Of a stretch of 64,000 nt of DNA, positions 1 through 40,200 are shown in pieces. Position numbers and translations under genes: made by a program. The notes under the pieces are model-generated. The model was not told where the DNA came from and searched no databases. It was given only the letters and a program-made list of their open reading frames with translations. The stretch's first letter is position 1; the number at the start of each line of letters is the position of its first letter. The DNA is from Bigelowiella natans CCMP2755 (taxonomy: Eukaryota; Protista; Cercozoa). Location: NCBI GenBank assembly GCA_000320545.1, contig ADNK01002458.1:1-64000 (forward strand), given 5' to 3'.

Positions 1-1465
1 CAACAAGAGCGTATTGGAGCAGCGTGCGGTAAGAGGACGAGAAGTAGGGAGGACGGAGTTCAGAAATGTGTATCGTCGTCATCATCATCAGCAGCAGCAG
101 CAGCAAGCATCATCTTCTGGTGTAGGCGGAAATATGGTGATTCTCATATTAGATCCATCAAGGCTACAACAAGAAGTAAGTGACATATCAAACTATGCAT
201 TGCTATGTATTGCTACATCATCTTATGTATTGCCATGCGTTACTACATCTAATCCCTTGCATTTGTGCTTACAGGATGACGATTTTAAGTACCTCGCAGC
301 TTGGGAAGAAGAAGACAAAAAAGCATCGTCATTATCATCATCTTCATCAGGACTACGAACAACATCATCATTTATGAAAGAAGGCAAGGTTCATCGTAAA
401 GCTACTACTACTACTACCACTATAACCCAAGAAGTAGTAGCGTACACTGCAACGATTAGCTAATATCCCGTTATTACATCGCTTCTTACTTATACCCTCT
501 TCATCTTCCTTGTATTCCTCCTTTCTTCTGCTTGCTTCTTCACAGGATAGAAAAGCTAGTAGGAATAATGAGAGGCGGAGGAGGGGAAGGAGGAAGATCA
601 AAAAGGGCAAGAATGTAGACAACTTCTACAATGTAGGAGGAGGAGGAGGAGGAGGAGGAGGAGGAGGAAGAACAAATCGTGGTTTGATGGGGAACGATGT
701 GGCTCTTCATGACTACTATACTGGTGACGTCAAAGCTGCTGCTGGTGATGATGATGATGCTTGGAATGCCGCAACATCATCATCATCATCATCATTGCGA
801 CCAGATGGCGCAGGAAGAGGAGGAGGAACTACTTATTTGGACAACAACAACAACAACAACAACGATGACAACGAGGAGGAGGAAGAAATGCTAACTAGTC
901 GTGTTGCTGGTGATGATCATCAAGACCAAAAATTGGCGTTATCGTCGTCATCTTCGTCGTCTCTCTCGCATCATCCCATCATTGGATCTCTTGAGCTTGC
1001 TAAGAAAGGTGTTTGTTGATGATTATAGATGAGCGGCAGCTACTTACACTACGACTGATATTAAAGCAGCAGCAGCAGCATTAATGAAGAACAAACAACA
1101 CATCAGAATTAATATGCAGCATGTATGCAGTTATCTGATGATGGCCATCTGCGAATAGCCCTACCCATCATAACTACATAATGTGCTTCGTCTCTTTCTT
1201 TGTGTGTCAAGAGCAAAACAACTCACTGCTGATGACACTTACTGTTATCATTATCATTCTTCTTCTTCTTCTTCTTCTTCTTCTTCTTCTTCTTCTTCAC
1301 TGACCATTATACTCATCCGCATTCTAACCTTCTCAGCTGGAGAAAGACGAGCTTTGCTGTGTTTGGATGCGAAGAGTGGTCAAGTAGGGGTAGTAGTAGT
1401 AGTAGTAGCAGCAGTAGTAGTAGTAGTAGTGCGTTCTAAAATAATATTGTGTACTTCGATGAAAA

Positions 1466-1510
<45 letters not shown>

Positions 1511-2355
1511 CGCGCAATCGTATAATATACAGCAAAATCACAGGTTTTTGCTGACCAGCAGCCTATTCTCAGAACCCATCAAGAGCATGAGTAAGAAGGC
1601 TATTATCATCACCATGATTATCACGTTGTTACTACTACTTTTCTTGCTTGATGTATGTGATGATGATGATGATGATTGTGCCCGATGATTCCTCCTTTTT
1701 CTTCTTACTTGCGGGAGATCATTATGTGTTGTTTTGTTGATAACAGGCAGCTGTCAATTGTACAGAAAACAGTGAAGCACTTCCATTTGATACTGTTAGT
1801 ACTAGTAGTACTAGATGATGATGATGATCATGATGATGATGATCACTATACTCATGCTCACGATTTATATTTGTGGTACTTTCTTCTTCTATTTTCCTCC
1901 TCCTACTAGTACTACTACTACTATTGTAGCGACTACAGTAGACTGCTATCATCTCTACCACATGTTCAACTTAGAATGAAATCATCATACATTACTGCTG
2001 CTTGATTAGATAATGATGATAATGATGATGATGATGATGGTGACGATGAACATGTTGCGTATTTAGGTATCCTTTTGTGGCCGTGGTTCTTGTCGTCGCC
2101 TATTTTCAGACTGCTTTTGATGCCCAACGCAAAGCACCGCAAGTAACACTTCCTCCTCCCTCCTCCTCCCTCAGTAGTAGTAGTAGAAGTTGTAGTAGTA
2201 GTAGAAGTGGTAGTTAAGAGTTTAGTCTGATGAAGAAATGATGTGTGAAGCAATGATAGCTGCTGCTGCTCCTCCCCCTCCTCCTAAGATGGGTGATGAT
2301 TTCTATCAACAACAGCTACAGGCACAGAATAACCAATTGAGTGAAAAATCAAGGT

Positions 2356-2387
<32 letters not shown>

Positions 2388-2449
2388 CTGCAGATCCACA
2401 ATAATAGTAAGCTAATAAATGAGAGTAGTAAGTATGATGTAAAAGGATA

Positions 2450-2485
<36 letters not shown>

Positions 2486-2716
2486 GGGGGGGGGGGGAGA
2501 TAGAGGGAGGAGTAATGATCAGCAACACTATTCCAACAACAACAACGACAACAACAACAACACAAACCTTGTATTGATATGATCATCATGATCTCATCAT
2601 TAGGGGTGGAGACGATACGGATCTTATACTCATACTGGCAGCTGTTTTCTTCGTTGCTGTTATTCTCATTGTTTGGCTGGTGAGTAGTACATGCATGCAT
2701 ACCTACACCTACATAT

Positions 2717-2753
<37 letters not shown>

Positions 2754-2908
2754 GAGAACAGCCCCTTACTTCGGTTGGGGGACTGATGAGCTCATTACTA
2801 TCATTAGAATAATTAATATATTATCTGTAGAAATATACGGAGTGTGTTGTGTTGTGCTGTTGCAACCCTAATTAACATCATCATATTATTCTCAAACGGT
2901 CGCTGCAT

Positions 2909-2941
<33 letters not shown>

Positions 2942-3047
2942 TCATTCCTACAGATTTATCGATTTAGAGCTGCATGTGAGCGCCTATTTAGAAAGGTATG
3001 ATGATGAGGATGATGAGGATGAAGATGATATTGATGATATTGATGAT

Positions 3048-3081
<34 letters not shown>

Positions 3082-3836
3082 CTAGATAGGTTAGTGTTGT
3101 GATACTTCTGCATCTATTGGCTCGTAATGATGACATCATCATCATCATTGTCATCATCATAACTTAGTTCCTAGTCGTCGATATATTGATGATCTACCTG
3201 TTCGGGGGTGCAAGTATGATTCTCATAGGCCTTGTGAGGCTGCAGGTTGGGTATACTACTACTACTACTACTACTACTGCTACTACTACATGTTGTGTGC
3301 TATAGTGATGCAGGTCACACTCCTAATCATCATCATCATCATCATCATCCAAGGAGAGAAAAACATGAGATTCAATCGCTTGTTGTTTTATGCTGTCATT
3401 TAGAGGCTGATGCTGCTGCTGCTGCTATTGATACTACAACAATTATTCCACATCATCATATCTGTTCTCTCTGAATACTTAATTGTTAGATTTTAGTTGG
3501 AAAAGATACATTCCTATTGCTGTCCTGGAACTTAGTAAGAACCAACACAAAAAAGCACACATGGCCAACATTATGACGACATCTCGAATAACATTGGGGG
3601 ATGGATTTTCCCATTGTTCAAACATCATCATCAAGTTGTTGCTGGGGGGCTATAGAAACACAGTCCTGCTATATGTGTGGTATCATCGAGTGGTAACGTT
3701 TGTTTGTGTTGCGGGTGTGTTGTGTTTGTACTAGGCATGTGGGGGACTAGCTTCCTTATATCTAAAGCTACCTGAAACTCTACGGAGATTCTACTTGGTA
3801 GTAGTAGTAGTAGTAGTAGTGCGTATAAGTTGTGAT

Positions 3837-3871
<35 letters not shown>

Positions 3872-4049
3872 GATACCACGGGTGATGGTGGTGTTTGGAT
3901 GCAGCAATATCCATCATTCTTATAAATAATTATCACCTTAAAGAGAAACATGGTGTTGTTGTTGTCGTTGTTGTATTCAGGTGGTTCTAAGCGCTATAAT
4001 GGCAGTGATGATGGTCAAAACTCCATAGATTGTTCTCATTGTCTTCTTC

Positions 4050-4093
<44 letters not shown>

Positions 4094-4433
4094 TCTCTCC
4101 CTCTCTGTAATGGTGGTGGTTGGTACTCGAGAGCAACAGTACACAACATCATCAAGTTATATATTTCTCGCTACTACTACTCTCATCCTCATCTGACTAT
4201 ATCCCCACCAATACCCAAACCACCAGGTCATCACATTACCATGGGTATTTCTGCTGATATTCTTGTCTCTAGCAGCATTGCTAGATCTCGGATCTGGATT
4301 ACACAGAAGGTAGGATGAAGTAGTAGTTTGTACTCACATAGTAGTATTAGTAGTAGTAGTAGTAGTAGTAGATGATGATGATGGAGTATGCGAAGCAGCA
4401 ATTGACGTGATAGACGATAAGAATCGTTTATCT

Positions 4434-4466
<33 letters not shown>

Positions 4467-5871
4467 ATACATATACATATACACACACACATAATAATAC
4501 ACTCCTCCTCGTTGCGACTCTAGCTACATATATACATGTTAATATGCATGCTTATTGTGGTGTTTGTAGGATGCGAGTGCTGGGAGACTTTATCAGCTCG
4601 GATAGAGACCTCATTCCCTTTGTTACTCCAAGGATCTTTTATGAGGTGATAATAGCTGCAAGTAGTAGTAGTAGTAGTAGTAGTAGCATCTGTAGCTCTG
4701 AATTTTATCACCACCCTAACTCCACCGTCGCATGTTTGAATTGGGAATGTGGTGGTGGGGGGGGTCAAGGAGGAGGAGGAGGTCATCTAATTGAATATAA
4801 ATTCCCTCTAGCTTCTTATAGCTTCTATGACGGCCATTCTCATCATCGTCCTCACAACCATGATTGATCGATGTCATCCATTATTCATGAAGGCCCCTGG
4901 ACTCCGATTTCGATTCGCAAACTTGTTTACCTATGGATTACTGGTTAGTAGGAGGAGGAGCTCCTTTCTCCTCTCAATATTCAACAATGATGATAATAAT
5001 CACCATCATTACATGTACACACATATACATAAATACTTGGTGCTACTATTCGATGTGTATCTGGTGTTAAGCTGCGTGAAAATTGTGTGGTGGTGAAGGA
5101 GGGGGAGGGGGGGAGGAGGAGGAGGGGGAGGAGGAGAATATATGCATAAATTAATTGTTTTCATAAGAGAAGGGACAACGATGATGATGATGATGATGAT
5201 GATGATGATACTGAATGGGTAGGTCGGATGCACTCCTGTGGGGACATCGGTGATGTTCTCAACCTTAACTATGATCGTTGCCGGGTTAGCGTATGGCCTC
5301 TACATTCTTCCGTAAGACATATACGGCGACGATGAAACTGATGATATGATAGAAGCAGCAAAAAAGTAGATGATTAGGTAGATACTGTATCGGCAAGATG
5401 TATTGATGTATTGATGTATGCATACTACGTACTAGTATTAGGGGGAAGATTATCTGTTTTATCATTCACACAGTGTAACATCAGCATTCTCATTTTTCAC
5501 ATCATAAATTAAGTATTATTTGTTTTTGTTTTGCTGCAGTTACCACCAGAAAAGGATTCGGCCTTTACCCCTTTCAATGTTTGGTCTTGTATTTTTTGCG
5601 TACGTTCATTATCCGGTAGGAAACAATAAATGATTCCCAACTCATCGGTAGGGGTGGAGGGGATGGTGAAAATATTATTCCATCGCAAGTAAACTCCCTA
5701 TTCCTCTCCCTCCCCCCCCGCACATAAACCCACACGTACCTTGTTCTTTCTTTCTTTCTTCTTTTAAGTCGAATAATGAACATTTATGAATTTTTTCAGG
5801 TAATCCGGCCTTATGCACGTGCAATCAACTATTTGTTTCCCTTTGATGGTTCAGTAACAACCACGGTATAG
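1..5871 (+). CDS. Presenilin-like multipass membrane protein, divergent and probably catalytically dead; multi-exon, 5' end outside window
   Basis: GT-AG-bounded exons 3735-3797, 3981-4013, 4227-4309, 4570-4645, 4893-~4947, 5223-5311, 5540-5615 and 5800-5871 join to ACGGLASLYLKLPETLRRFYL-VVLSAIMAVMM-VITLPWVFLLIFLSLAALLDLGSG..IPFVTPRIFYE-APGLRFRFANLFTYGLL..MIVAGLAYGLYILPYHQKRIRPLPLSMFGLVFFAYVHYP-VIRPYARAINYLF..*. This is colinear with presenilin TM4-TM9. Upstream exons give TM1/TM2-like YPFVAVVLVVAYF and LILAAVFFVAVILIVWLIYRFR. Confidence 0.85.
1240..5215. repeat. Dense intronic microsatellites ((TCT)n, (TAG)n, (CA)n, (GAT)n, (CT)n, (GGA)n); similar clusters at ~15950-24800, 42140-43580, 49380-51350 and 57300-63080
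   Basis: Directly visible tandem di- and trinucleotide runs inside GT-AG introns. Confidence 0.95.
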
Positions 5872-7398
5872 CATGTTTTTCTTCCTACATCTTTGCTGCC
5901 TTGCAATGAATGATAGTTGTCAACTTCGACCTGAAAGAGAAAGGTTGAGCTTTCAAGCATGAGAGAAAGGATTGTAAAAATTGAGGGTAAAATGCCAAGG
6001 TCTTGTTTGTGCCTAGAGTGCATCATCATGTCTTTATAATTTTATGCCAAGCAACATGTGTGCCGAATCGAACGAAAACCCGTGAATGCGTGTGTCTAGA
6101 TCTAAAGATATGTGCGTGCGCTCTGAAATGTTCTGGCTACGACATCATATTAGCATGGACCTCATTGTCGGCAGATAGCAGTTCTGACAAATCCGTGCAT
6201 GCTCTGTGTGCATTTAGATGCATGCTCAACCTCGCACACAGCGCAGTCACATTGTGACACTAGCTAGCTAGCTGCTAGCTAGAGTGTGGATACGATACGT
6301 GCCACTCCAGCTCTTTGCAACTTTGACATGCTAGCATGGGCTAGATGGGTTCTGATGCTTGCTAACTTGTGTGGCACAATCAGCTGATAACTAGCTAGCT
6401 AGCTAGCTCACATCTGCTAATTGCTAGATTGCCTGAAGCATTTAGACATCTGACATGCATCTCTACATCGCCATTTCGTCCAATCTCACATGGAATCTAG
6501 CTAGCAATCCCTTTAGTCGCCCCCTAGCTAGCTAGCCCTGCATGCTAGCCTGCTGACCCACGTTATTCATGTCCCAGATCCACAGATGCACAACAGCGTC
6601 GGCATGCGCATGCGACGCTCTAGCGCTGCTCTGACACTATAACACGATGCATTCACGGTGTGCATGAAGGTGCGTGTGACATGCTGTCTAGATGCGACTG
6701 GACGTCTAGGTGCGCGACAACAACATGTGTTGCTGGCTAGCTGGTGGTGATAGCACAAGTCTCTCATGCACCATTCTAATCCATGATGCAATGAAAGCAC
6801 ATGGGAGAGCAATGCATACGCCAACGCGATGCTCTCCTAGCTGGCACATGGCTACTAGGCTACAATATTACACATCATTAAATAAAATGAAAAATATCGA
6901 TTCTAAAAGCAATTACATCTAGACATATGATAAGACATACGCCAAGCATTCTTTTGTATTCTCTTCTTGTAGTATTATTATTAATAAAATTTTTCTGCAA
7001 ACATAATTAAGACCTCACATTCTGCAACGCGTTAAACAATAAAAAATGACTGCTTTCCTTCTCAGCCATTCTACAACCTATAATCTATCTAGAAATGTTC
7101 TTCTCTATTCATGTCACTGCTACCAACTGGTCAATATAGAATATCCTAATCCTTCCTCAACATGATGAAAACGTAAACGTCCTCCGATGATTATCTCCTT
7201 TTACACAACCCGAATAACCTGGGCTGGATTGTGGATTAAAATTTTAGTCCGTATTATTCTCTATGAAATATTAGAACAGTTATTGCCATGACTCTATATA
7301 ATTCTTTACAACGTACAGAAGACGTATCCAAGGTACTACTCAGAAATCATGAGAAGCAAGGAATCATTAGGCAGGGTATCATTGATTCTCCGACAACT

Positions 7399-10300
7399 TC
7401 AGAGTGTGGAAGAGCGTAAGGCTTGAGGAGTAGAGGGAGTTGTGGATTCACTTCTTATCGACACCACAGAAGGAGTTGTGGATTCACTTATCGACATCAA
7501 CACATTGTTGGAACAACGTGCAACCATATTACACTGTTGTTGCTCCATTGGCGAAGAACTTGGTTCCTTTGCGGTAAGTTCTACTACAATCACTGCAATG
7601 TTATCTCTGCTAACCTTTTTAGGGCTTGCAGTAGTTATGGTGTTGATGATTATTTGGCAAGCGTCTGATGCACTCCTGGAATTGAGCACCAGTTCTGCTA
7701 CTTTAGTGGAACTTATGTAGTCCCACACACCATCAGATGCAATCACTAAATGGGAGTCTTCCTCTCCAATTTCCGTCTCAGAAAAGTGTGGCTCAGAAAT
7801 CAGACCGTAAGAGGACATACACAAATCACCAAATGCTCGCGTAACGGACAGCATACCCATAAATCTACCACCACGTACATTTCCTTTTTTACGCTCTATT
7901 CGTGCTACTTCAAGCTTATGATCAGGCTTATGTCGGCATATTGTGCTTACTTCCACGGGTCTTCCTTTCCTTATCAAAATAGCTCCAGAGTCACCAACAG
8001 ATGCGCTATGCAACATCTTGATTCCTGTGTGCATATCTTTGCGGACTAGACAAATTTGGCCGGTTGAACCTTGGTATTTACCCTTGTCGCTTAATAAACC
8101 GGTCATCACATCGGCAACACGTACACACGCTCTTTTCAACGCTAGCGCAGGTCCAGATATTATATCCTCAGCTTCGAAGAAAACAACAGGATTTATATCA
8201 TCATCTTGGCACTGTGGGCCAAGACTCATTTCGACGCTGTCCATGTCAGTGGATCTTCGTCTCTTGAGCTCATCATCATTAAAGAAATTTCGGAGGAGAC
8301 CCCGATGTTTGATACGGGTGAGAGTACGCGGTCGAGGAGGGGTGTCAGTAGTTGATGATGCTTTGTTTTTGTGATGAGAGTCAGTATCCATTAGGTCGTA
8401 CATGCTAGAAACCTTCTTATGTAGTGACCCAAGGCTGGGTCTGCCGAGGCCCATCCTATCTCCCTTCAACTTTAATTTTTTCAACTCTTCTTCAAGGAAG
8501 AAAGGGAATGTAGCTGCAGCAACATCTGCTACATCCTTGCCATCATGCCCATCAAATACGGCAAAAAGTCCCATTCCAAGATCACCACAGAAACCATCCT
8601 TTACTATAATTCTGTCTTGATGTTCCTTGATGTCATCCACCATAGCAAAATTCGGTTCTTCTATAGCGCAACAATTGTGAACCGAACACCATTGTCCAGA
8701 TGCGCGCAGGGTGCAAGGTCTGTCTTCTCTAGGCGCGTAACAAGTGGTAACTGTGTACTGTAAAGATGGCGCAGCCGGGATTCCAAGAACATCTCCACTA
8801 GACAAAGGGCACATTTGATTTCCAGAATAAGAAGTGAGATTTTCTGCACTTCTTCTCTCTTTGCTTTCTGTCTTGCCACAGAGGATCACCTTGAAAGAAT
8901 GATTAGCATGCGCTTGTACAACAAGATTCTGATCTTTCAGTCGTAATAATGCGAACTTCACATTCATCGTCTCGGTACCGTCAGTTGGGAACCTAATTCC
9001 GCATTCTTTCGATACTCCTATATCTAAACCTTCACGTGAAGGTATTTTCACTAAAATTTCTGACTCCGATCCGTTACATTTCATTGTAAGCCTTGCACTC
9101 TGACAGATAGAGAAAGAAGAGTATTATACTAGGTATGCTTTTTCATAAGTGAATTAATTATATACCACGGCTGCGGAGTCATCGTTATCTTCAATGATTT
9201 CTCTAAAATTTAATTGAAAATTTTCGCCGAATTCCAAGCAATCGCCGGGACGAATTTGATGCCGTTTCTGAAAAAAATACTAGGAGTGAGGGCTTATTCA
9301 TTTGATTTACCGGCAAGATTACCCGAGTTACGGTCACAACGCTGTCGCAATCAATTGCATGGCAACCGAAGGCGCCATCTTCAAATAAAATCTGCAAAAT
9401 TTAAAGCAGCAGCATATTAGTGAGCTTGGATTTGTCACACTCCGAGGTACATGCATTACCTTGAAGTGTTCCGGAGCAGCTGGGGAAGGCAGCGCAAATC
9501 CTTGTGCAACGTCCTTCACTGATGAACCAAAAAATGCGCCTCCTACTCCTACTGCAAATTCGTCTCTAACTTCGATTTCTGGTTGCTGTTGCTGTTTTTC
9601 ATTTTCTTGTTTCCCATCCTCCTCATCATCACTAGACGTGTCACCCCAATAGCCTTCCTCAGCTTCATCTTCATCATCACTGCTGTTGTTATTCTGAGTG
9701 GAAAGATAATGGTGAACATCACTCTTAACATATTTGAATTTCGCATAATCACCTCGCAAATGCTACCAACCATTGCCACCTCAGGGTCAACCATAGATTC
9801 CTAAGCATGGTCACGATGTTACGATACATTCGGAAGTGTATCAAAACCACGTCGGGATTTTTATCATCAGATTCTAATCTAAAATAGAATACCGTTTCTG
9901 TCGTCCCTTCATTAATGTCGGATTTTGAATCCAAGCCACTGTGATTTCTCGTTTCTAAAATGACCATTAATTTTAGTTTGGCAAGCAATATCATTGAGAT
10001 GAAGCATTACCACTTTCACTACTGCGAGAATCTTCCTTCGAATCAAAATCGGAATGTCTGAACCCAAATTGCATTTGAAATTATGCTTTCGATCTTTACA
10101 AAGATTTCAAAAATTTACCTTGCTGCCTCCTTACCCCGCTTTTCTTCATCTGTTAATGCTCTCTCAAGTATACAGTATTTCCCATCTTGCTGTCTTTGCT
10201 CTTTCTCAATCCTTACCCTGTATAATATGAATAATCACGCCATTAATCATGTTCGATCAAAATTGATGTAAACATAAAACTAAATGGCGGAACACCGACC

Positions 10301-15334: not shown

Positions 15335-15944
15335 TTAGTACTCATCAACCAATTCTTTTTCGTCGTAATCTTCTACCCCTTTGTAACTCTGCTCTTTCTG
15401 TGAACTACTTTCTGTTTCGACCACCTCCATCTCAGAATTGTCAGATTCATTCTGGACAGCACCATGATTGCCTTTGTTACTTTCAGTTTCCTCCTTCTTC
15501 TCTCTGTATCCTAAGCTCATATACTTGTCGTAGCTACCGTCAAATAGTGTCTTTGGGAAAGTTTTACGATAGGTCTTTATGAGCATACTTGTGAAACTGC
15601 CGTCATTATGAGCGTCGAATTGATCATCATCATCCTCTCTTAAAAACTTCTTTTGATTTTTGATCTTCAGTGCTTCCGCTACGTTACCCCTTTGGAGGTA
15701 GTACATCAGAAGAATATCCTTTTCATTACGCTCTTCGAGAAACATCTTCAGGTGGTTTTCCTCTTCTGGAGTTAACGCTAACTTGACCAATCCCGCGACA
15801 TCATCCATCTCGCAGAAATGATCGAAGAACACGAAAAACAACCTCCTCGATGTAGCACTTCCATCATTTCCAAGTGAATCCTTTAATTCACATGTATGAA
15901 AATCAGATATTCTAATTAATCATCAGTTAAACACATTTCAATTA

Positions 15945-21790: not shown

Positions 21791-22906
21791 ATGATGCTGA
21801 GTGGCCGTCTTCGCTACCCCCTCCTCTCCACCCTTTTATTTGCATTATCCTTCCCCGTCTCCGTCCAATCTGGACGATTGAAGAATGTGCGACAACCTCT
21901 GCGAAGTATGATTAGTTTGCGAAGGGCCGGAAGAGGTGCCCGAAGAGCCATCAAAATACATTCCGCGACGTCTCCTCAACTGTCCATGCAGCCTCCAGCC
22001 TCTAAAACGAAGGAGGAGGATCCAGAGATTGAAAGACTCAAGGAGACGATTCTTACTGAAGCGAAATCCTTCTTCGATCCCATGGATCAGTAAGAAGAAG
22101 AAAAAAAATAGGAAGAAAAAGAAGAAGAAAGGGAATTATATTGTTCAAAGATATCCAGAAATTTTAAGGAGTGCAAGGGAAGAGATGAGGATGAGGATGA
22201 TGATAATGATGATAATGAAGAAGAAGATGATGATAATGGTAGCGAATGACAAACATGTTGTTTTTGTCGGTACAACCACTAGATCAATCTACGTCCCAGA
22301 TGTAGAGTTCAATGATCCTCTCAACTCCTTCAAAGGCATTGATAAGTATAAGGTATAGATGTGTCATCTCTACGGCATGGTATGCATATCACGAAACTAC
22401 TGAATGATACTATTGAGCAGCTGCAAATCAATTTTCACTGGCGATAATTTCCAGAATTACCACAAATATTCTGTCTGCGTGACTATGTAATAATTCAGGA
22501 TAACGTAGACATGCTGGGAGGAAGGACGTTGCTTGGGATGTTTGCTTTCGACCAGACCAACCTTAAAATACACGACATCAAACAAGAATCAGATCGCACT
22601 TTGGTCACAAGATGGACGATGGAATTTAGGGTGGGTGGGAGCTCCTTTAGATTGATATTATTAAGCGTTAGTGCCATATTAATTAAAGGCTCATATCATC
22701 AACATATCATTAACGTGATCGGAATTCCATCATCTCACAATGTGACCATTATTATCATCATCATCACCATCATCATCATCATTATGATCTATACCCTGAC
22801 TACCAATAGTTCAAACTGCTTCCATGGAAACCAACTGTGGTATTCACCGGTATCTCGAAGTACACCCTCAACGACAACTATAAGGTGGGTGGCTTGCTTT
22901 AGAGAA

Positions 22907-22956
<50 letters not shown>

Positions 22957-24557
22957 AGGGGAGGGGGGAGGGCAAATACAGACGATGATGACAATGGTGA
23001 TAAACAAGAATTCTGCTGCTATCAGGTGCTAAAACATGAAGACTACTGGGACTCTGTCAATATAGGCCCTGAGTATGATGATGAAGAAAAAGAAGAAGAA
23101 GAAAAAGAAGAAGAAGAATTACATGTATTACTACCTGAGACCATGAGAGACGGTATGTAATGATCATCACGACAATCATCACCATCACACGAAGTACTAC
23201 TTCACAGTGGGACGTACGTCAAGATGCCGCTAGTTCAAGGGCTAAAAGACTTCGTTGCACAATTATTCTCAAAGTAGTACTTATGTACATATGTATATGT
23301 ATGTATGTATGTATGTATGTTGAAGGCTCTTATAAGAAGATAGTAGTGAATGAACGACTTGATTTCGCTTACTTCTTAAGCACTTCTCGTTTGTGTATGT
23401 GTATTTATCTATTTGTAAAACATCATATTATATAATTGGACTTTCATTATATCAAGTTTCGTTGATGTTGTGGACGAATGCTCTTAAGAAGCCGCACAAT
23501 TTGTTTTTTCACCATGACATTATTATATCCTACCCGCCCATTAATTTTCCGAATTATAACTCTGAATAACTTGCATAGCCAAGTCGCTCCTGCCTTCTCC
23601 TCCACGTATTCTCCTGTTTCTTCTTCTTCATCATCATCATCATCATCATCGTCTTCTTCGATGGCGGGGGAGATGCCATACACATTGCTGCGGAGGGGAG
23701 AGAATGGGTATCAAGTGCGATCATATCCTGGATACGTAGCAGCTCAAGTCTCTTCCTATTCTAAGCGTTCGGAAGCATGGGAGCAGCTTGGGAATTACGC
23801 TGCCCAAGTAAACATCAGACCTTTTGCCCCTTCCATTATGGAAATTGAACGCCGAGGAGGAGGAGGAGGAGGAGGAGGACAAGGGGGAGAAGAAACATCG
23901 GGTAATAAGTAAGAACGTGTAGCAAACAAAAGGCTGCTATTACCTTATAACACGAGGATCTGGTTGGGAGCTGGGGGAGGAGGGGGAATATGGTTTAGTT
24001 TCATCAGGGGCATCATCATGTGAAATACATGTGAATAGATGGATGATGGGAATATCGGTTATTAAAATCTTCACATGCAATTTATCTTTGATTTATTCAA
24101 TAATGATAGCCTCCTCCTTAACAAAGAAAATGCATTGGCCAATGCACCTTTCAACGTGTGTACTACGTACCTACTGCGTACCGACTATGTACCGATTACT
24201 GCTGCTTACAAAAAAGACTCATCAGATCTCTTTCTTTTTTCTTTCACAGATACACCACTTTGTTTCTACTACCTAGAACTGGTCATCAATCATGTAATCT
24301 ACGTCTCTACTTCCTTTATTTTGTGTGGCACCAGTACCAGTCAGCTCCCTCAAGATGATTATGATGATGATGGGAACTTCGCTGTTGGGTCTTCTTCTTC
24401 TTCTTCTTCTTCTTCTTCTTCTTCTTCTTCTACGCAGCTTGTAGAGATTCCTCCAACAGTTTATGCGGTACTACTACTTGCTATAGCTATACATGCATAC
24501 TGTATGATTGCCCAATTACTCTTCTATTCATGTATTATAAACTAAATAATATATATA

Positions 24558-28960: not shown

Positions 28961-31202
28961 ATGGGAGCTGGAGTGCCATCTAGGGAAGTTGCTGCAGTTG
29001 GGGGGGGCGCTGAAGAAGCTGATATTGCAGGCGATATAGAAGTTAGTTCTTTTACTGATGTGTTATGTGGGTATTGTGAACATAAGAAGAAAAGATCTCA
29101 GCTAGCTTCATTTCGCAGGATGACCAGCAAGTAATATTGCAAACAAGGGCGCCCGGCGATCTAGATGAAGCCTACCAGGATCTCCTTCAGGACGGCTTGA
29201 TCGTCCGGTATGACTCATACGTCAAGAAAAAAAAAGATCGGCAAATGCGCAAGGTCAGGACATTTGCTTTATTAGTTTGTAATGAACGCCTTCTAATGAC
29301 CAATTACGATCTGTTCGACAGAAAATGGATAGCAAAGTTGTCCTTCAGAATAGCATCACTGAACAGCCTTCGGAATCTCATTTTCGCAGGAAGCATTTAA
29401 AATGTCTTCAGGTATATTACAAGAGATTTATTAATTTCATTGTATTAATATCTCCGCATATAATCAGCGAGAAATGTCGTTCCTAGCGCAACCAGCAGAT
29501 CTGTATGCAGATGTCATGGGAGCTCGTGAACAAGTCATATTTCGTATGGCTGTAGCATTTCAAAGAATTCTTGCTTATGAGAAGGTAACATACAAGAACC
29601 AACTTCGGATATTAGATATGGGGACATAATCCGTACTTCGTAGCATCTGTTTAGATTTGCTAAAACGCATTAATATATATTTGCTCAGAAAAATGGGAAG
29701 TCCTACCAAAGTAGCACGGATGAAAAGGCAAGATGCATAGAACATTTTCTGAAGAATATACCTACTGCCTTCGGCGAAGAGGAGGAGGAAGAGTCTAAAA
29801 GTAAATCAGATGGAACTACCAAATCAAAAGATAAAATGGAAAGTAGCGATGGTAAGACACCAACTGACAAGGGAAACGCGGAGGAGAAGGACGATTCTAA
29901 GAATGTAAAAGAATCAAAAGATGAAAGGGAGGTAAAGGAAGCGACATCAGCAAGGGAAAACACCACCAGTCAAGACACAGCAGAGGAAAAAACCGTAACT
30001 ACTGATGAGGTATCCACTGGTTCTCAAGTAGATGCTGGTGAGAAAGATGCTAAAACGGTTGAGAAGCCTAGCGAAATCCAGGAAAACAAGCAAAAGGGTA
30101 AGAATGCAAACGTGCCAGAGCCAATCTACTCCATGGACAGTAAGTTTATAGAAGAAATGGTTCAATTTGCGGATACGCTGCCTGAGATTTTCGGGTCTAC
30201 TGGCCTACTCGCCAGACCGCGAGACACTGCCAATAGCAGTAGAGTTAGCAAAGCAAATTTGGGAGAAGTGTTGAACTCGTTGCAGTCGGTAGGGAATAGG
30301 CTTCAAGGAAGCGCACGACTTCGATTCGAAAGTAACATCCGAGATATCTTCAGTTTAGCCCGTCAAGGGGGGGTCGAATCCCTTGGAGATGGATTGTCTG
30401 AAGTCATCGACCTTATAGACCGTGACAATGTCGACTTGGATCAGATATTATCGGGAGGATTCCCATTCCTCAATCCAGGGATGCGTCAATCTCGAGGAGG
30501 ACGAGGAGGAGGAGGAAGAGGAGGAAGAGGAGGAAGAGGAGGAGGAAGGATTGGGCAGAGAACGCAGCGTGGTGGTACACCTTCCAGAGAAGTTAGGCAA
30601 GTAGAGCTGCAGAGAGCTCTGGAAGCTGCAGCCCAATCACTCGGGATATCTTCAGAACGAACTTCTCTTGTATCTACGAACACATCAGCTTCTACGCCAG
30701 TAACTTCTCTTGTACACGGTACGCCTGCTTCTAGCTCTGCAGCTGCTTCACCTAATTCTAGTGCTGCTGCCGCTGTAGAGGATTCTAAGGCGGGTTCTAT
30801 TGAAAATGAATCAAAGACGTCCTTAGATTCGAAATTATCGCCAGAGCCAACAGGAGAAACAATCGCAGAGTCTGGTGAATCCCAGAGCGGTAGTGCTGCT
30901 GGGGAAGATGCTGTGGAAAGCGAAGCTGAGGCCAAGAGTGAAGGAAAAAGTGGGGATGAATCAAATCCTGGAGGTGGGGCCGAAAGTGAGGCTAAAGGTG
31001 ATCATCATCCTCCTAGAAGCGAAGCTGGGGAAGGAGGCACTACAAGTTCGAGAGGAAATGCAGAGAGTGCTACAACCACTACAGCTAGCAGCAGTACTGG
31101 TGTATCAGCATCATCATCAGCCCCGACAACAAACACGGAACAACCTTCTGATGCAAAGGAAGTAAAGGAAGTAAAGGAGAGTAAGGATGATGCTAGTAGT
31201 AA

Positions 31203-31234
<32 letters not shown>

Positions 31235-34200
31235 ACCAAGCTGCGAACGAGGAAAGCAAAGCTCAGCAGACTTCTAATGCTTCTGGCGGTAGTCAGCCTT
31301 CCGCCACACCCCAGTCCTCCTCGGGAGGTAGAGCAGCAGCAGCAGAAGCTCTGAGCTATGCAGCAGCAGTAGCGGCAAGAGGAGGGGGAGGAGGAGGGGG
31401 GAGCACATCGTCAAGCAGCCGAGGGGGCCCACGTGATGCTTCTAGCTCCCCTCCTGGATGGCTAAACCATTTGGTGAGCAGTATGCCATCTTCTTCGAGA
31501 AGCAGCAACAGCAGGAGAGGAGGGGACTCAAAGGATTCAAAGGAAACTAAGACATTCAAACAAGACGCCCATGACTGGGACTTCCGCTCCGAAAAGCTTC
31601 TCATGAGACTCATGGAGAGGTACGCTTTTCCTTAGAATCTACTTATGTTTCCTCATTTTTTGTTAATCTCGCTCTCCGTTCAATAAGCTTTCTCCTGTAC
31701 CTATCTCATGCGAATAATCATGTATCTAGATGTACTAAGGATGCTAAGGACAGTCTTCGGGTTGTACTTGAATCAAAAGGCTCCAAAGTGAAGATGCCGA
31801 AAGCGTTCATCCAACTTCATCCTTGTGCAGATTTGCTATGGTTCCTCCAAATGGATCTATTCAAGAAGTGTGTTGGAAGGAAGGAAGCCACCCACCCTGA
31901 AGTTCAAACGCTTATTCGATACTTGAAAGAATTACTTGGAGCGATCACAGAGCTACTCCAGATCGCCGCTCCTTTTTTGCAGAAGAAGAAAACCGATGCG
32001 AAAAATGACGACAAAGAGGAAGAAACTAAGAAAATAAAGGAATCAGGGGGAAATGAGGAGAAGGGGGCAGAAAAGGATGATTCTTCACAATCACTTGGGG
32101 TCGCGAGCGTCTCAAAGAAAGCACAAAAAAATTCCCCCAGTGTGGATAAGTCATCAGCAGTACATGGAATATTGTACGACTCGTTGGCAGGTGACATTGG
32201 GCAAATGGCTGTGGTTGTGATCGCATCTTCGGTCCTGCACCCAGTGTACGGTACACATCTCTCTGAAGCGCTAGTAGACTCTGTCATGGCTTTGCTCGGA
32301 GTTCTAGATAAAATCTCAACTTCGAGCAATACCACCCCCGAGGCTAAGTTTGAACGAGAACTTACCAGTAGGTTCGACGCAGCCTCAAAACTGCATGCAA
32401 ATCCTGTGATGATTGAGACTCCGCACACGTATTTCGCACCTGAGCCGGACAAAGTGGTCACCATTCCTGGGGCCACTCACTTAAGCCTGGAATTCGACCC
32501 ACGATGCAGTACAGAGCGTGGAAGAGATTTTCTCACAATAACTACGCCTTCGGGTGAATCTGTCTGTGATGAGTTACATGGACGACCTGACACCTGGCCG
32601 GATATGCCCATCCTTGTTCCCGGAGACACAGCTATATTCCGTTTTAGACCAGACACTCCAAACAACTACTTTGGATATCGCTGTCTTGTAACAGGACTTT
32701 ATCTTGGCCCTGAAGACGACGATAAAGTTGATGACGACAAGAAGGGAGAAACAAAAAAGAAGCATGGAGTCACAACGAAAACACCTGTGCCTTCGAGAGT
32801 GGAGCGTGGAGTATCTTCCACCATCACTAATGCACCCTCCAAATCCACAAATACAAACAGCAATGCAGAGTCAGAGAAGAGGAAGGAGAATCCCGACGAA
32901 AAGCCTCAGGAGAAGGTAATGACACAATTTTTGAAAGCTGTACGTGGTGACCTGACCACTCGATGTTGTTATCATTATTATTATGCACTGTCGTTCAGAT
33001 TGTCAAGGAAGAGAAGAAAGGGACCCTTACTTTTGTTGAGCCCCCAAAAGGTTGGGTGATAGAATTAGAGCGCGCCTCGGCATGTGCGCTTGGCCGTTGC
33101 CTAAGGGCATTGTCGATTGGCCCGTCGGTTTCCCCGGAAGAGAAAAAGGCACATGACTGGTTAGCTTCACCACTTTTCGCTGGGGGCGCTGAAGGCATTG
33201 AGGTCACAATAAGATTCTAAGCAGCTCCAAGATTACTGAGCAATGTGTGACATGATGACTTTTTAATGTTGACAGGAGAAGTTGGACGTGGGTAGTAACC
33301 CCAATAGCGATGAGTTGAGTCTGGAGGATTTGGTTGAGGATAGAAAAGGTTCGAGCGCAGCTAAATTGTATGCTCATATGCGAATGCTTCTGCCCAAGAA
33401 ACCACATGAAATGATGGGAGGTACTGCGGTAAAGAAGACTGTGCGCAGATTTATTGCAATAGTATTGAAGCATCTTGGTTTGTTACCGGTTGCGGAAGAC
33501 TATTTGCACGAGCTTCAGGAAGACAGCAGCAGCACCACCAGCACCAGCAGCAGCTCCAAAAGCAAAGTAGTAATGGCAGTGGATCCAGTGCAAGCTCTTA
33601 TGCGAGAAAAACTTCGTCAAGTGTGGGAATGCGCTCAAGAGTTTCACCTAATAATCTCTAGGGATTTCAGGCAGAACCAGATGGAGTTTTACGCTCGTGA
33701 GGAGAAGATGAAAGAGACAAAAGAACAGTGGGACGAGAAGGAACTTGAGAAGGCCAAGGCCAAGTTAACGTGGGAAGGATTCTGCAAGTCTATCAATGAT
33801 CGATGCCTCCTGCTGCTCTCTCAACGCCCATTTTTTGAGGCATCGAACTCCGCCCGTGCTCTACTTATGACTCCCCCAAGGTTAACTCGCGTCAGTAGCG
33901 CCTACAAGCCCGCCAGTGGAAGCAGCAATGTCCACAATTCGCTAACAAGTCTGTATTCGGCATTCGACGTAGTTCATTCCTCATCTATAGATGACAAGGG
34001 AGAAGCGCCCACAGTCGATATGCAGCAGGAAGCCTTTAATCAACTCACAGATCTGGTAATCCAATTTCTATCGGCTCCAAATCCGGTGTCTAAGTTCAAG
34101 AAGATGATGGAAGTACATGGCTGCCGCGCAAGACAGCGCATAAAGGCAATCCACACTCTCCGAGGTGCGTTGAGCTCGATAAAGCTCGAGTCCTGTAAAA

Positions 34201-37200
34201 TCAGCATTCTTAGCTCATGGAGCACACCCTTTCGTCAATATTCTGCTTATCCTCGCAGTGAAGTAGAGAAATTAGCTCCCAGAGGAAGTCACTATTTACG
34301 GAACATTGAATCCTCTGGTCCTAAGCTTATAACTGCCGTACACGACGAAGTAACTGGCCTTTACAGGGAGCTCTCTTGTAGTATTCGCGACAACGATGTG
34401 TCAGAGCAGATGAAAGCACTGGCGATCGATAGCTGGGCTATTGATCTCCTCCCACACGATCACACATTCCTACTTAAGACAGGTATCTTGGGTGTGCTTG
34501 AGAAGGTTGCTGGCGCTGAAGCTAAGAATGGAGCTACTTCGCCATCATCAACTCAACCTAAAAATCTGCTGCTGGCACGCATGGCCGCAAAAGCGTTGCG
34601 AGTACTTCACGTCAATGCTTTAGATTGCAGCCCAACACTAGGAACGGGTGCAACCCAAAATACGTTGAACAAACTCCAGGTCCACGTTTTGAACCGCACA
34701 CTCGTTGATCTCCAAGAAGGGTTGAGAGACCTTGACGTTCTTCGTGAGAAACTCAGCGATGTTCGAATCACCAATGTTCGCTTGGGACATGACTTCTGTG
34801 TGAAACCGAAATCCCTCGAGGAGAAATTACTTTCCGATGTCTTGAAGCAATCTTTAGGCAACTCTGGCGTCGCTCATTCTTCTTCCTCAGAATCTCTAAA
34901 TAGCACCAACGACAGAAAGGGAGCCCGAAACGTCCAGAGATACATGGACAAGGAGCAGCAAAGCTTTGATGCTCTCGCAATGATGTGCAGTACTCTTGGA
35001 GGGTTTGCAACTCAGGGAGCTGCAGCATTCCTTTCCAAGAAACCAGTATTGGAGTGTTTTATCAAAATTCTCTCTCGGGGCACCCTTAGGATGCAGAGAG
35101 TAGTTTTTCGAGTCTTTCGTGTTCTCCTGCCTAAGATCGGCCCATCACTCATCGATGGACTATGCGAGAAGGTGGGATGGGGATCTCAAGCGGAAATTGC
35201 TCAAGTGAAGAAGGCCGGGAGATTCACACGCACTCTATTTATGATCGTTGGAAATGCCTTAATTACGCAAAAACCTGCGGGGCTTATCAACCAGAGCCCT
35301 TTCGAATACCGAAATGGCCAATCTGTGCTTGCCCATGCCTCTGATGCGTTGGCCTTGCTCAGAATCCTTGGTGTTGTAGTGCCCACTACTCCATCCTCCT
35401 CAGCTTCTGAGGATGCTCAAGACAATGGCGAAGACACAAAGACTAAAGAGGAGGAGGATGAGAAGGAAGAGGAACGACTTGCTGCGGAAAGGTCTGTCTC
35501 ATCCCTTGAATGGGAAGCGCAAGTTCGGGCATTAATCGCTTACGGGTTCCGTCAGCTACCAAAGCTCATCAACAAGTCACAAGGGGGAATGAACGCTGAT
35601 CATTTAAGGCAGAATCCATGTGATCTGCCATATGCTATGGCCGCCTTCAGCATTATTGGTGGACATTCGCCTCAGCTTACGATTGGCGGGAGGGTGGAAA
35701 TTGTGCGATCGAGTTCAAGTGGTGATGATGAAGGAGCCATGCGAGAAACAGGAGATCTTGTATATCTGGACCGATCTTCCAATATATGCCGTGTGCGATT
35801 TGACCACACGCCAGCCCGTGTGGTCGAGTGCGAAATATCCAAGCTTCGGGCTATTGATCCAGTTGAGTTCGACCCAAAAGCTTTGTTTACCACCACCACT
35901 CTTACAAAGGACTTCATCTCTATCTTCCAGCTTTTCACGCAGGTCTTGAACGAGGACGCTACAGAGCAGGTCAAGCGCAAGGAAGAGGAGGAGAAAGCGA
36001 AAAAGGTGCAAGAGAGCGAACGTAAGGAGAAAGAAGCTAAGCGGATACAGCGGGAGAAAGAAGCAGCAAGCGCGACATGGGATTGTCAGATATGTACCTT
36101 CATTAACCAGCCGAGCGCCAAATCATGTGCCATGTGTGGTACACCACGTCCTGCAGCCCTGCCCAATCTCAACACTGATGATCTCAATGATGACAACGGC
36201 CAAGAAGAGGGTGAAAGTAAGGCAACGGAGAAGGAAGCAAGTGAGGATGCATTGCTATACCGCCAGCTACGTTCTGTAGCGCTTGAATCGCTTTGCAGCC
36301 TCATGAAATCTGAGGAAGTCAGCAAGCTGTTGATCGGGTCCTCCTCCATGCTTCCAGCTCTTCTTCGCCTCGCAACACAACCAACAACTCTTGACAGCTA
36401 TAAATCTGTTCCGCAACTTCACGCGGAGCATGATAGGCTGCAGGAGCTGCTGCTCCAGGCTAGAGATTCTGTCATTGATTATTTACGGGTCTTCAAGCGT
36501 AAAGCTAAAGGCATTACCCTGGATTGCTCGCCTTTCAAAGGTTTGCAGGTACAGCTCCCAAATGCCCTTGATGCTGCTTCATCTCGTGCAATGACCTTTG
36601 TGGGTGATGACGACCTTACAACTGCTACCTTCAACGCAACGAAGCTGATGGGGACCATGCGCTCAAACCATGCTATTCCAAATTCGCTGCTCGCTTACTA
36701 CTTCGAGATTACAATCGAGGACGAAGGTGTCTCTCCAGAGCTCGCTTCAGGGGCTGCGGGGACCGATAAATCCAAAGAAATTGAAAAGAAAAAGAGTAAT
36801 GGGTCGTGGGGAATAGCCTTCGGTCTCTTCCGTGCAGGAATGCAAATGGACGGGGTGCCAGGAAGCTATAACTCATACGCATTTAACTCCACTGGAGAGC
36901 TTATTTCGACCATCTCTCGTGTACCTGTTAGGAAGGAATTTGGCGAACCATTTGGAAGTGGTGATGTCCTTGGATGTGTGTGGGAGATCAGGAGCAAGCG
37001 TGTCTACTTCACAAAGAATGGCTCTGTGATCAAGTCTAAAGACGGTTCTGAGACTGCCTTTACGAACGTTGACGGGTTCTTTCACCCCATCGTGTGGTGT
37101 CAAAATGCGGGTGCAAGAGTCAGCGTCAATTTCGGTCAGAGCAAATGGCGATTTAACTTTAAGCAAACGCTCCCCGCGCACTATCTCCAACAACTAGCGG

Positions 37201-40200
37201 ACGCAGAGAAGAAGGGCGACAAGATGAATTGGAAGGCCAGCGAAGCAGAGATCCGCCGCAAAACTATGGCAGAGGAACTTGTTGTAATGATGGGTATATT
37301 CCCTACAGAGCTTTGTGAGGTCGCCCTTGAACGATGCCAGGATGATATGGAACATGCTGCCAACTGGCTCATTGAGAATGGACGCAGAGAGCTTGAGATT
37401 ATGACAAATAACGCAATTCGTGCTTCAGGTATGTCACAAGTATTTTCTCTTTTTTTCCGATGCTTGTGTTAAGCTTCTGTGCCTTAAAAAGAGTTGTTGC
37501 CTATTGCTTTCATTTTTATTTTTTTGTACTGTTCCATGGGAACAACGTTGATTTGGCACTTAATATCAGAGATGATGCACGAATCCAAGCAAATGGAAGC
37601 TGCAGGTGTAATTCAAGACAGAAATCGTGGCGCTGGCGAAGACGACAGCGACGATGAAGATCTAGCTGAGTGGCTTGTGGGCAACGGTAACGTCTCCAGC
37701 GATCCAAGTTCTCAACGTAGAGCTGCAGCTGCAAGCTTCTTGGACGACGAGATTGAACAGGACGTCCCTGTAGGAGTGGAGCGAAATGAAATCCGCCGCA
37801 ATGGCGATGCAGAAGCCAGAGAGCACGGGGGACAGCAGAATCAGCATGTAGCTTCTCAAGCTAACGAAGATAGCGTTGATATCGTTTACGACAATCTTAA
37901 GATTGAGGATGTACATCCTGGGCAGATGGTGACGGTGAATCCTTTGGCCCTTTCTATTATTGGCGAAAACTTTCTCACACATGGCCCTCAAAGAGAACAT
38001 ATTCGAGCAGTTGCAGGAAGAAGTGGTCTTGTAGCTAATGTTGAGGTCAATTGTAAAGCCGTGCAGTTGTTATTTTCCAATCTAGATCAAGGAAGCCAAC
38101 ACTGTTTATGGCTCCCTCTGAACGTATTGCTTAGAGCTTCTGGACAATGGCAAGATCCATGCCCTCAACAATACAGTGGAGAGTCTTGGGGTAAGCTGGG
38201 TCATAAGTTCTTGGACTGTGAGCAAGCTCTATCTGTACGAAAGGTTCGCAGCGCTGTTGTCGGCTTAGTTGCTCAGAAATGGCCAAAAAACATCCCGTTT
38301 GGTCTTAAGCAGCTTGGAGGTGCGGAAGCTGTGATGTGCATTTTACAACTCACCGCTGCTGAAGTACTGTCGACGGTCCTTGATGATAAAATTAATTCGT
38401 CTGCGCTCGACTCCTCTGTTCCCCTTCTTGATGCTTTCCGCGAAAAAATCCTTCGAATCGTCGAAAATGAATGGGAAGCGGTGAAGAGTCGACCCGAGAG
38501 CAGCCTGCCTGAGCTGCACCATCACCCCGAGACTTTGCATAAGACTATCTCATCAGGAGAAAAATTCGAGCACAAACGGGATTATCTCTCGAAGTCATCC
38601 TGTCCATTGATTCAAACGTTACTTGAGGAGTGCATAGTGCATTTTGCCCAGGCTGTGGACCACCCCCCCCCCGTCTTGGTCTATAAATCTAAGCATCCAT
38701 ATGCCTCTCATGACGAAGTGCGTGAGGAGGTTCACATCCCAGGAGCCAACAAACTCGTAGTTACGTTCGACTCGCGCTGTCATCTTGGTAATGATATTTT
38801 GACCAGACTGAGTTTCTACAGAGACCCCGACTACCAAGACTTGATCTCTCAGCATAATGGTCGTGGTGCAGCACGGTATCCAACTCTGGTTGTACCAGGG
38901 GACCGATTGTTCTTCAAATTCACTTCCCAGAACAACAATGGGCTATGGGGCTATAAATTCAAGGTGAAACCTCTAGAGTACCGCCTTGACGACCAGCAGG
39001 CGCTTAACAGCCACAATTTTGAGCTTGGGAGGTGGCTTTTCGAGCTGTTCCTCACTCAAATGCCCCAGGAGATCACGGAGAGATATATTGTTGAACTGTA
39101 TGACGCAATTACCCTCTACGTCATTCATGCCCGTCCCTCCACGAAAATAAAAGGCGTTAAGTTGCTGATACAATTTCTCCTACATGTGCACCGTATACCT
39201 GCGCTGAGGTTATCGCTCTTGCTAGGCCGCATGGCCAAGGTACCAGATCTGAAGAAATTAAAACCTCTCACTCAAGAGATGGACGCTGTCATGGGGAGCC
39301 TCGACGTGAATCGCACCATCCATTCACAGACACTGCAAGCGCTAATGGAGCTTCTTGCAACTGCTGACCTTGTTCAGAAGGACTTCACCATTGGTAAGCG
39401 ACGACGTCACCATCTGGACACTACAAGTAGTAGCCGTGACTCCAAAGAGGAGAAAGAAGAGAAGGACAGCAAGGAAGAGGATAATAAGAATACAAGGGCC
39501 GGTACAACAGCAGTAGCAGTAGCAGCGCCACATACTTGTAAAATTCATTTCGGCCAAAAAAATATGGCCGATATTAGGAACTATGGACGCAGAAGACTTG
39601 TGATTCTAGAAGCAAAATATAGCTCTGGTGCTACAAGCGCAGCATCATCATCGTCATCCAAAAACTCCAGCAGCAGCCTCGACATTACCACGAGTCTTCA
39701 GGCTTATCTAAATCGATGTGGAGGAGCTGATCTTGTGCTTCCTGTATCGTTCAAACTCCTCTCCGAACTTAAGCCATTTGGTGTGGACCCCGACCCAAGC
39801 TGCGACAAGAAAAAGCTCCGGATACTCTATCGCATAGAGCGCGAGGAGTACGTTCCTGGGAAGGGTGCTGTCATGAATGTTGTCAAGGATAAGCTCGAGA
39901 GAACATTAGTTTTCCGTATGGGTACTAAAACCCAGCCAGCAGTGGGCGATGGAGAACTTACGCATCATACAATAAGTTCATCACCTTCGATGTTTGAGCA
40001 GGTGGTACGTATATCTAGATTCACTCTGCAGGCCCAAGTGGCAGCACCAGAAACATCATCATCATCAGCCACTGTCACCACAGATTCGAAGAATAAAAAC
40101 AACCTCAAAGCTGCTGCTTCTTCTTCTTCTTCAAGCGATGGAGATGTTAAGAAATCATCATCTGCAGGATCTCCTCGAGGTGTTGCTACTACTAGTACTA

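Follow-up and report, generated by a model that had tools for sequence, protein, structure and literature searches.

Why a presenilin fold should be kept once the motifs of its active site are gone is the question raised by a gene at the start of a 64,000-nucleotide stretch of DNA (the window) from Bigelowiella natans, a chlorarachniophyte of the Rhizaria. The first-pass annotation had described bases 4227 to 5871 as a non-catalytic presenilin paralogue, with a scaffold role or an ion leak as possible functions. The gene does not start at 4227, however, but extends from upstream of base 1 to 5871, and the annotated part is its C-terminal end only. It corresponds to B. natans gene model jgi/Bigna1/141746 (P0002), which shares a cluster with P0001, a protein of 451 amino acids retrieved using one upstream exon as query. 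The gene is composed of numerous short exons separated by microsatellite-rich introns, and a 20-exon model on the + strand from 2 to 5871 (Table 1) has GT-AG introns throughout, zero internal stops and P0001 contained in it letter for letter. The intact frames and splice sites claimed earlier were therefore found both in the six stop-free exons of 4227 to 5871 and along the whole model. The public JGI model P0002 is flawed in that it omits exon 1-175, exon 2954-2995 and a Cys/His module described below.

Table 1. Exons of the presenilin-like gene, by position in the window, with the domain encoded and the basis of each assignment.
Feature	Position	Strand	Basis
Exon entering from upstream of the window; low-complexity sequence linking the membrane part to the F-box/LRR/Cys-His module (outside the window)	2..175	+	Open frame; joint 175 to 275 in 4/4 runs
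Linker exon	275..388	+	Transcript joints; present in P0002
Low-complexity linker exon	546..1008	+	Joint 388 to 546 in 3/4 runs; 681-1008 on the same contig as presenilin exons in 2/3 contig runs
Exons 1337-1389 and 1544-1590: family-specific soluble R-A-L-L...D domain, directly before TM1	1337..1590	+	P0001 match; R, A and D invariant in alignment A2; 380-nt length match
Exons 1747-1794 and 2067-2142: TM1	1747..2142	+	Transcript contigs, PS1 alignment, gene model
Exons 2316-2353, 2604-2679 and 2954-2995: luminal loop, TM2, next loop	2316..2995	+	Transcript contigs, gene model; 2954-2995 absent from JGI model
TM3 exon with family-specific Asp (D235 of P0001, aligned to PS1 S169)	3168..3245	+	Acidic in 45/46 aligned family rows, 0/50 canonical
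Exons 3490-3534, 3735-3797 and 3981-4013: TM4 (W-N-L at the PEN-2-binding NF position) and TM5	3490..4013	+	Transcript contigs, gene model
TM6 exon, first aspartate retained at 4284-4286	4227..4309	+	Transcript contigs, gene model
Short TM6-TM7 loop exon	4570..4645	+	Joint 4309 to 4570 in 3/3 contig runs
TM7 exon: Arg (4911-4913) at PS1 G382, Ala at G384, Asn (4920-4922) at D385	4893..4943	+	PS1 alignment; 128-letter match in 3/3 contig runs
TM8 exon	5223..5311	+	Transcript contigs, gene model
TM9 exon, RPLP (5559-5570) replacing PALP	5540..5615	+	Transcript contigs, gene model
Last coding exon and stop; 3' UTR coverage to about 6160	5800..5871	+	Transcript contigs, gene model

Splicing is supported by GT-AG joints along the gene in transcript contigs from three runs of three studies. 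These runs are labelled RNA by guess only and were taken as transcripts because they contain spliced joints; the joints of the first two introns come from a second alignment, with four runs. Both joints flanking exon 4893-4943 are absent from the 15 joints printed (24 more are unlisted), so that support for this exon is provided by P0001 and by a length match: exactly 128 letters lie between 4307 and 5222 in all three contig runs, as predicted from exons 4570-4645 and 4893-4943. The 380 nt found between 1009 and 3167 in the contigs also agree with the model. P0001 itself derives from a contig of 2455 nt, compared with a gene span of more than 5 kb, and a single raw-read run gave 110 aligned reads, mainly at the 3' end. 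No sequence differences were listed at the motif codons in the transcript contigs, and no alternative exon supplying GxGD was found in any frame of 4310-5540 on the + strand. Contigs retaining the introns after 388 and after 5615 (275-490, 360-573, 5589-5828) occur alongside the spliced ones; retention of 389-545 would stop the frame ahead of the presenilin part and, if real, lead to a soluble F-box-only form.

Further along the window, a giant and intron-poor HECT E3 ligase gene with RanBP zinc finger, SPRY, laminin-G-like and HECT domains occupies 29674-42131 (+), while an open frame of 574 codons at 7399-9123 (-), encoding a PP2C phosphatase domain (E 7e-37), has no introns in its span among intron-rich neighbours. 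Weak DUF2358 and SOUL heme-binding matches in adjacent frames at 22448-23912 (+), possibly one gene, are both under the Pfam cut-off, and so is a weak ELYS nucleoporin match at 15335-15919 (-). CTAG/GCTAGC and ATGCAT palindromes are abundant in the intergenic stretch 6250-6880, the flanks of which differ and which is possibly a repeat element.

Homology to presenilin was significant, with a Pfam Presenilin (PF01080) match of E 1.1e-13 (51.2 bits versus a cut-off of 34.3) and an alignment to human presenilin-1 (PS1) of E 1.3e-15. As claimed at first pass, the TM7 alignment is gapless and the AAC codon at 4920-4922 puts Asn on the second catalytic aspartate, D385; the GxGD motif reads Arg-Phe-Ala-Asn (4911-4922), PAL reads RPL (5559-5567), and the TM6 aspartate is retained as GAT. 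Because both defining motifs, GxGD and PAL, were looked for and are absent, the protein does not belong with the active presenilins. The best PDB sequence match, 8x52_B from an Abeta49-bound gamma-secretase, carries Asn at the same position, which we take to be a deliberate substrate-trapping mutant. In PS1, APP epsilon-cleavage was absent with the substitutions D257E, D385E, G382K/L/Q/V and P433L/Q (PMC5669866), activity depends on G384 and PAL (PMC2647162), and larger residues at G382 or G384 left almost no activity, presumably by blocking water entry (PMC10290658). Combined with the joint loss of D385, G382, G384 and PAL, these mutagenesis results indicate that the B. natans protein is very likely dead as a protease, and the view of a real, spliced and conserved non-catalytic paralogue was upheld.

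A HMMER search of 1.84 billion representative sequences gave 124 matches and was the only search in which relatives surfaced, since a word-index search with the presenilin part returned the protein itself only. Fifty sequences in which both TM6 and TM7 were aligned and GxGD was absent were hand-picked as the family set, and a canonical set of 52 was chosen by the GxGD pattern, which makes any count of D385 in it circular; 22 fragments or mis-modelled ends were excluded from both. A FastTree phylogeny with 48 family members and 51 further sequences recovered the family as a single long-branch clade with a support of 1.00, and P0135, initially labelled canonical, is a family fragment placed inside this clade. 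The long members share one order of parts, namely an F-box, about three LRRs, a Cys/His module, a soluble domain in which Arg, Ala and Asp never vary (alignment A2) and the nine-helix presenilin fold. Metagenome scans matched none of 199 candidate stretches with P0001 and only its own contig (L001) with P0126; L001 encodes an 840-amino-acid family protein within one open frame. The named members, B. natans and Paulinella chromatophora, are both Rhizaria, but restriction of the family to Rhizaria is a guess because few members are named. Neither an F-box-presenilin fusion nor a natural family of presenilin pseudoproteases was described in the literature searched, from which subscription journals are mostly missing. 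A term search of the accessible text of PMC12475580, PMC2770060 and PMC13746701 gave no description of the family, and Bigelowiella is not named in the accessible text supplements of PMC2770060.

What unites the family is an arginine rather than a lost aspartate. Arg occupies the position of PS1 G382 in all 50 members and the TM6 position is always acidic (45 D, 5 E), while the TM7 position holds D in 35, E in 10, N in 4 and C in 1, such that both aspartates are retained in 31/50. Gly at G384 persists in 6/50 only, Arg replaces P433 in 43/50, and Pro is found at A434 in 47/50. By parsimony on the tree, the TM7 residue changed six times, the TM6 residue twice and the G382 Arg never. The acidic TM3 residue was a further difference from canonical sequences (Table 1). 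Conservation of the D-to-N change, proposed at first pass as a check, was found in three orthologues with 46-75% identity; the change is nevertheless confined to one branch of four Asn sequences (support 0.999) among the 50 members. Asn was therefore ruled out as a hallmark of the family, which is marked instead by G382 to Arg and PAL to RPL. Cys at the TM7 Asp position in P0008 from P. chromatophora and in its 73%-identical relative P0133 represents an independent loss. Loss of protease activity is very likely for the B. natans gene, but activity is conceivable for the 31 members with both aspartates.

The TM6-TM7 loop fared similarly. Its length, given as about 40 amino acids and here 42, was correct, but it is no special feature, because 12/52 canonical presenilins are equally short; it was thus rejected as a sign of inactivity. 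These 12 (P0050, P0052, P0054, P0067, P0076, P0080, P0095, P0109, P0112, P0114, P0118 and P0120), with loops of 38-52 amino acids, come from unrelated protists. Short-loop canonical presenilins, such as those of Polysphondylium, Diplonema, Coccolithus and Andalucia, resemble the family in a loop of about 40 amino acids, but GxGD and PAL are intact in them, the scanned ones gave no F-box match, and the tree places them outside the family. The autocleavage segment appears to be missing from them, and endoproteolysis may not be needed for their activity.

In a Pfam scan of 58 proteins, an F-box (E<0.01) was found in 17 of the 19 family proteins of at least 700 amino acids, 16 of them above the Pfam cut-off, versus 0/13 canonical presenilins. 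For B. natans, the JGI model P0002 has an F-box-like match of 31.2 bits (cut-off 24.3), located upstream and outside the window. This part closely resembles the N-terminus of P0003, an orthologue in which a single transcript ORF contains both halves and the RFAN motif, and which is 66% identical in the presenilin domain. The B. natans frame is open to window base 2 and spliced from 120 onward, and the transcript contigs end near base 80-120. Comparison of the linker with orthologues involves low-complexity sequence, and its score was reached by 45/1000 shuffles for P0003 and 0/1000 for P0005. As judged from sequence, the fusion of F-box and presenilin very probably holds in B. natans as well, with the F-box exons joined from upstream of the window. 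The F-box of this gene and of its two closest long orthologues is without the first-helix proline found in most other members, so that Skp1 binding could be weak.

Between the LRRs and the soluble domain, seven Cys and one His are invariant in 20/20 rows of alignment A2, and the pattern occurs in all long family proteins but the JGI model (22/23), and in 0/50 canonical presenilins. The module presumably binds zinc. No PDB sequence match was found for the Cys/His and soluble domains of P0008 at E up to 10, which is no proof of a new fold. The best PDB matches of the family profile were FBXL2, FBXL17 and PS1. The family thus resembles FBXL-type SCF receptors (FBXL2, FBXL17, SKP2) in having an F-box followed by LRRs, both by profile and by fold, and departs from them in having only about three LRRs, followed by the Cys/His module and a polytopic presenilin domain; such a domain is in none of the F-box structures among the matches listed. 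The N-terminal module points to ubiquitin ligation in place of the generic scaffold role proposed at first pass.

A presenilin fold was predicted for the orthologue P0003, to whose model, and not to the B. natans protein, the AlphaFold2, Foldseek and VIA-align results apply. With 59 aligned sequences, AlphaFold2 gave a mean pLDDT of 72.8 and a pTM of 0.66, with a disordered linker and nine helices in the membrane part; the nine-helix count derives from this model, as a strict-threshold hydropathy scan gave six segments only. Foldseek ranked PS1 first (E 1.7e-8), with FBXL2 and SKP2 matching the N-terminus. VIA-align gave Z 18.3 for PS2 (rmsd 3.0, 201 aligned), 15.4 for SPPL2a, 13.5 for archaeal PSH and 13.3 for FBXL2 (rmsd 4.8, 153 aligned). 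Whole-model match lists were filled by LRR and presenilin structures. Folding of P0001 from its single sequence was poor (pLDDT 50.6), and two ESM Atlas searches gave no usable match. Taken together with the alignments, the family shares with presenilin-1 and -2 (A22A, PF01080) the nine-helix fold, the TM6 Asp, the TM4 Asn and the Pro/Tyr of the strand preceding TM7. It differs from them in R-x-x-D/E/N/C for GxGD, RPL for PAL, Asp for the TM3 Ser, the N-terminal F-box module and its separate long-branch clade.

Reading function from this architecture, we propose that the presenilin-fold domain may be a protease-dead, membrane-embedded substrate receptor of an SCF ligase, a proposal to which we give even chances. 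Action of the B. natans protein through SCF seems somewhat more likely than not. Binding of clients in the dead groove, suggested by analogy, is more tentative, and equally tentative is the full picture of a dead site plugged by the invariant Arg and turned into a membrane-helix-reading SCF head, by which 'cut' would have been swapped for 'ubiquitylate' within one chain in Rhizaria. The N-terminus of presenilin faces the cytosol; the N-terminal module would accordingly be cytosolic, and its F-box would bind Skp1-Cullin1. Retention of the F-box among members only 24-45% identical to the Paulinella protein argues for such Skp1 binding. Next, the Arg residues at G382 and P433 would pair with the TM6 and TM7 acids and block the entry of water; this would account for charge (D or E), and not exact geometry, being kept. 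A conserved charge of this kind, with D and E interchangeable next to an Arg that never varies, resembles a plug held by a salt bridge. The old substrate groove, with its gained TM3 Asp, would then grip the TM helix of a client without cutting it, and SCF would ubiquitylate the cytosolic part of the client for removal.

Redeployment of a dead intramembrane protease fold for membrane clients is known from iRhom and from Derlin/Dfm1. Dfm1 has been linked to the E3 ligase Doa10 (PMC11827857). The component parts are already known and the pairing of pseudoprotease and ligase has a rhomboid precedent, but rhomboids belong to a serine clan, whereas the family belongs to the aspartyl GxGD clan and carries its ligase adaptor in the same polypeptide. 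Within the GxGD clan, signal peptide peptidase (SPP) passes membrane clients to the ubiquitin ligases TRC8 and MARCHF6, with which it cooperates, and inactive SPP traps its substrate (PMC11827857), so that a fold still binding TM helices would be the simplest reason for its retention. By contrast to the family, SPP is an active protease and works with ligases that are proteins of their own, and the family fits the presenilin profile, with PS2 above SPPL2a by fold. Against a protease-dead reading of the whole family stand the 31 members with both aspartates, and caution is called for by SPPL2c, long presumed to be a pseudoprotease and later found active (PMC7768045).

Among the alternatives, the one that survives best, although unlikely, is that a dead presenilin sits in a gamma-secretase-like complex through PEN-2, with the F-box tuning the level or assembly of the complex instead of acting on outside clients. 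The Asn of the TM4 NF motif, which binds PEN-2, is found in 45/46 aligned family rows and is followed by Phe in 24, and PAL is dispensable for complex assembly (PMC2647162). However, TM4 of the B. natans protein reads W-N-L and not W-N-F, the Asn may be purely structural, and the C-terminus is without the hydrophobic tail ending that binds APH-1 (PMC7248309). It is also rather improbable that the domain is a membrane sensor, in which the re-charged cavity (TM3 Asp, TM6/TM7 acids, two Arg) would bind a lipid, ion or metabolite that switches SCF activity on cytosolic targets of the LRR and Cys/His module. What is conserved specifically in the family are indeed charges clustered around the old active site, and the LRR and Cys/His module alone is a plausible substrate-binding surface, as in FBXL proteins, but two branches (N and C) do without the TM7 acid.

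We consider it quite improbable that the family consists of atypical active aspartyl proteases coupled to ubiquitylation, cutting first and then tagging, with some branches inactive, including that of the B. natans gene. Both aspartates in 31/50 members and the acidic TM6 position in all 50 agree with this, as does the feeding of E3 ligases by SPP cleavage (PMC11827857), but it has to accommodate the G382 Arg of all members, the lost PAL and repeated D-to-E swaps of a kind lethal to PS1 activity (PMC5669866); nor would it rescue activity for the B. natans gene, which carries Asn. A function as ion leak, or as simple scaffold unconnected with ubiquitin, is very unlikely. Charges line the cavity, and presenilins without catalytic activity can rescue mutants of moss and Dictyostelium (PMC4927835); the ion leak raised at first pass is nonetheless weakened, as none of the PS1 G382 mutants tested could restore the ER Ca2+ leak (PMC5669866), and the conserved F-box would be left unexplained. 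A pseudogene or gene-model artefact, suggested by the exons and Cys/His module skipped in the public JGI model, is hardly credible given that 20 exons stay in frame, that the contigs of several studies are spliced, and that the gene has same-motif orthologues at 46-75% identity and 49 further relatives.

An SCF receptor with a dead presenilin fold in the membrane thus remains our preferred reading. Non-catalytic roles of presenilin have so far been deduced from engineered aspartate mutants (PMC4927835). A presenilin fold apparently kept under selection with GxGD and PAL gone represents a direct test of what the fold does free of proteolysis, and the natural D/D, D/E, D/N and D/C variants allow comparison, albeit in a lineage poor in laboratory tools. 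If the proposal is true, the aspartyl clan would gain its counterpart of iRhoms and Derlins, and an F-box protein with a nine-helix membrane domain would take SCF recognition into the bilayer.
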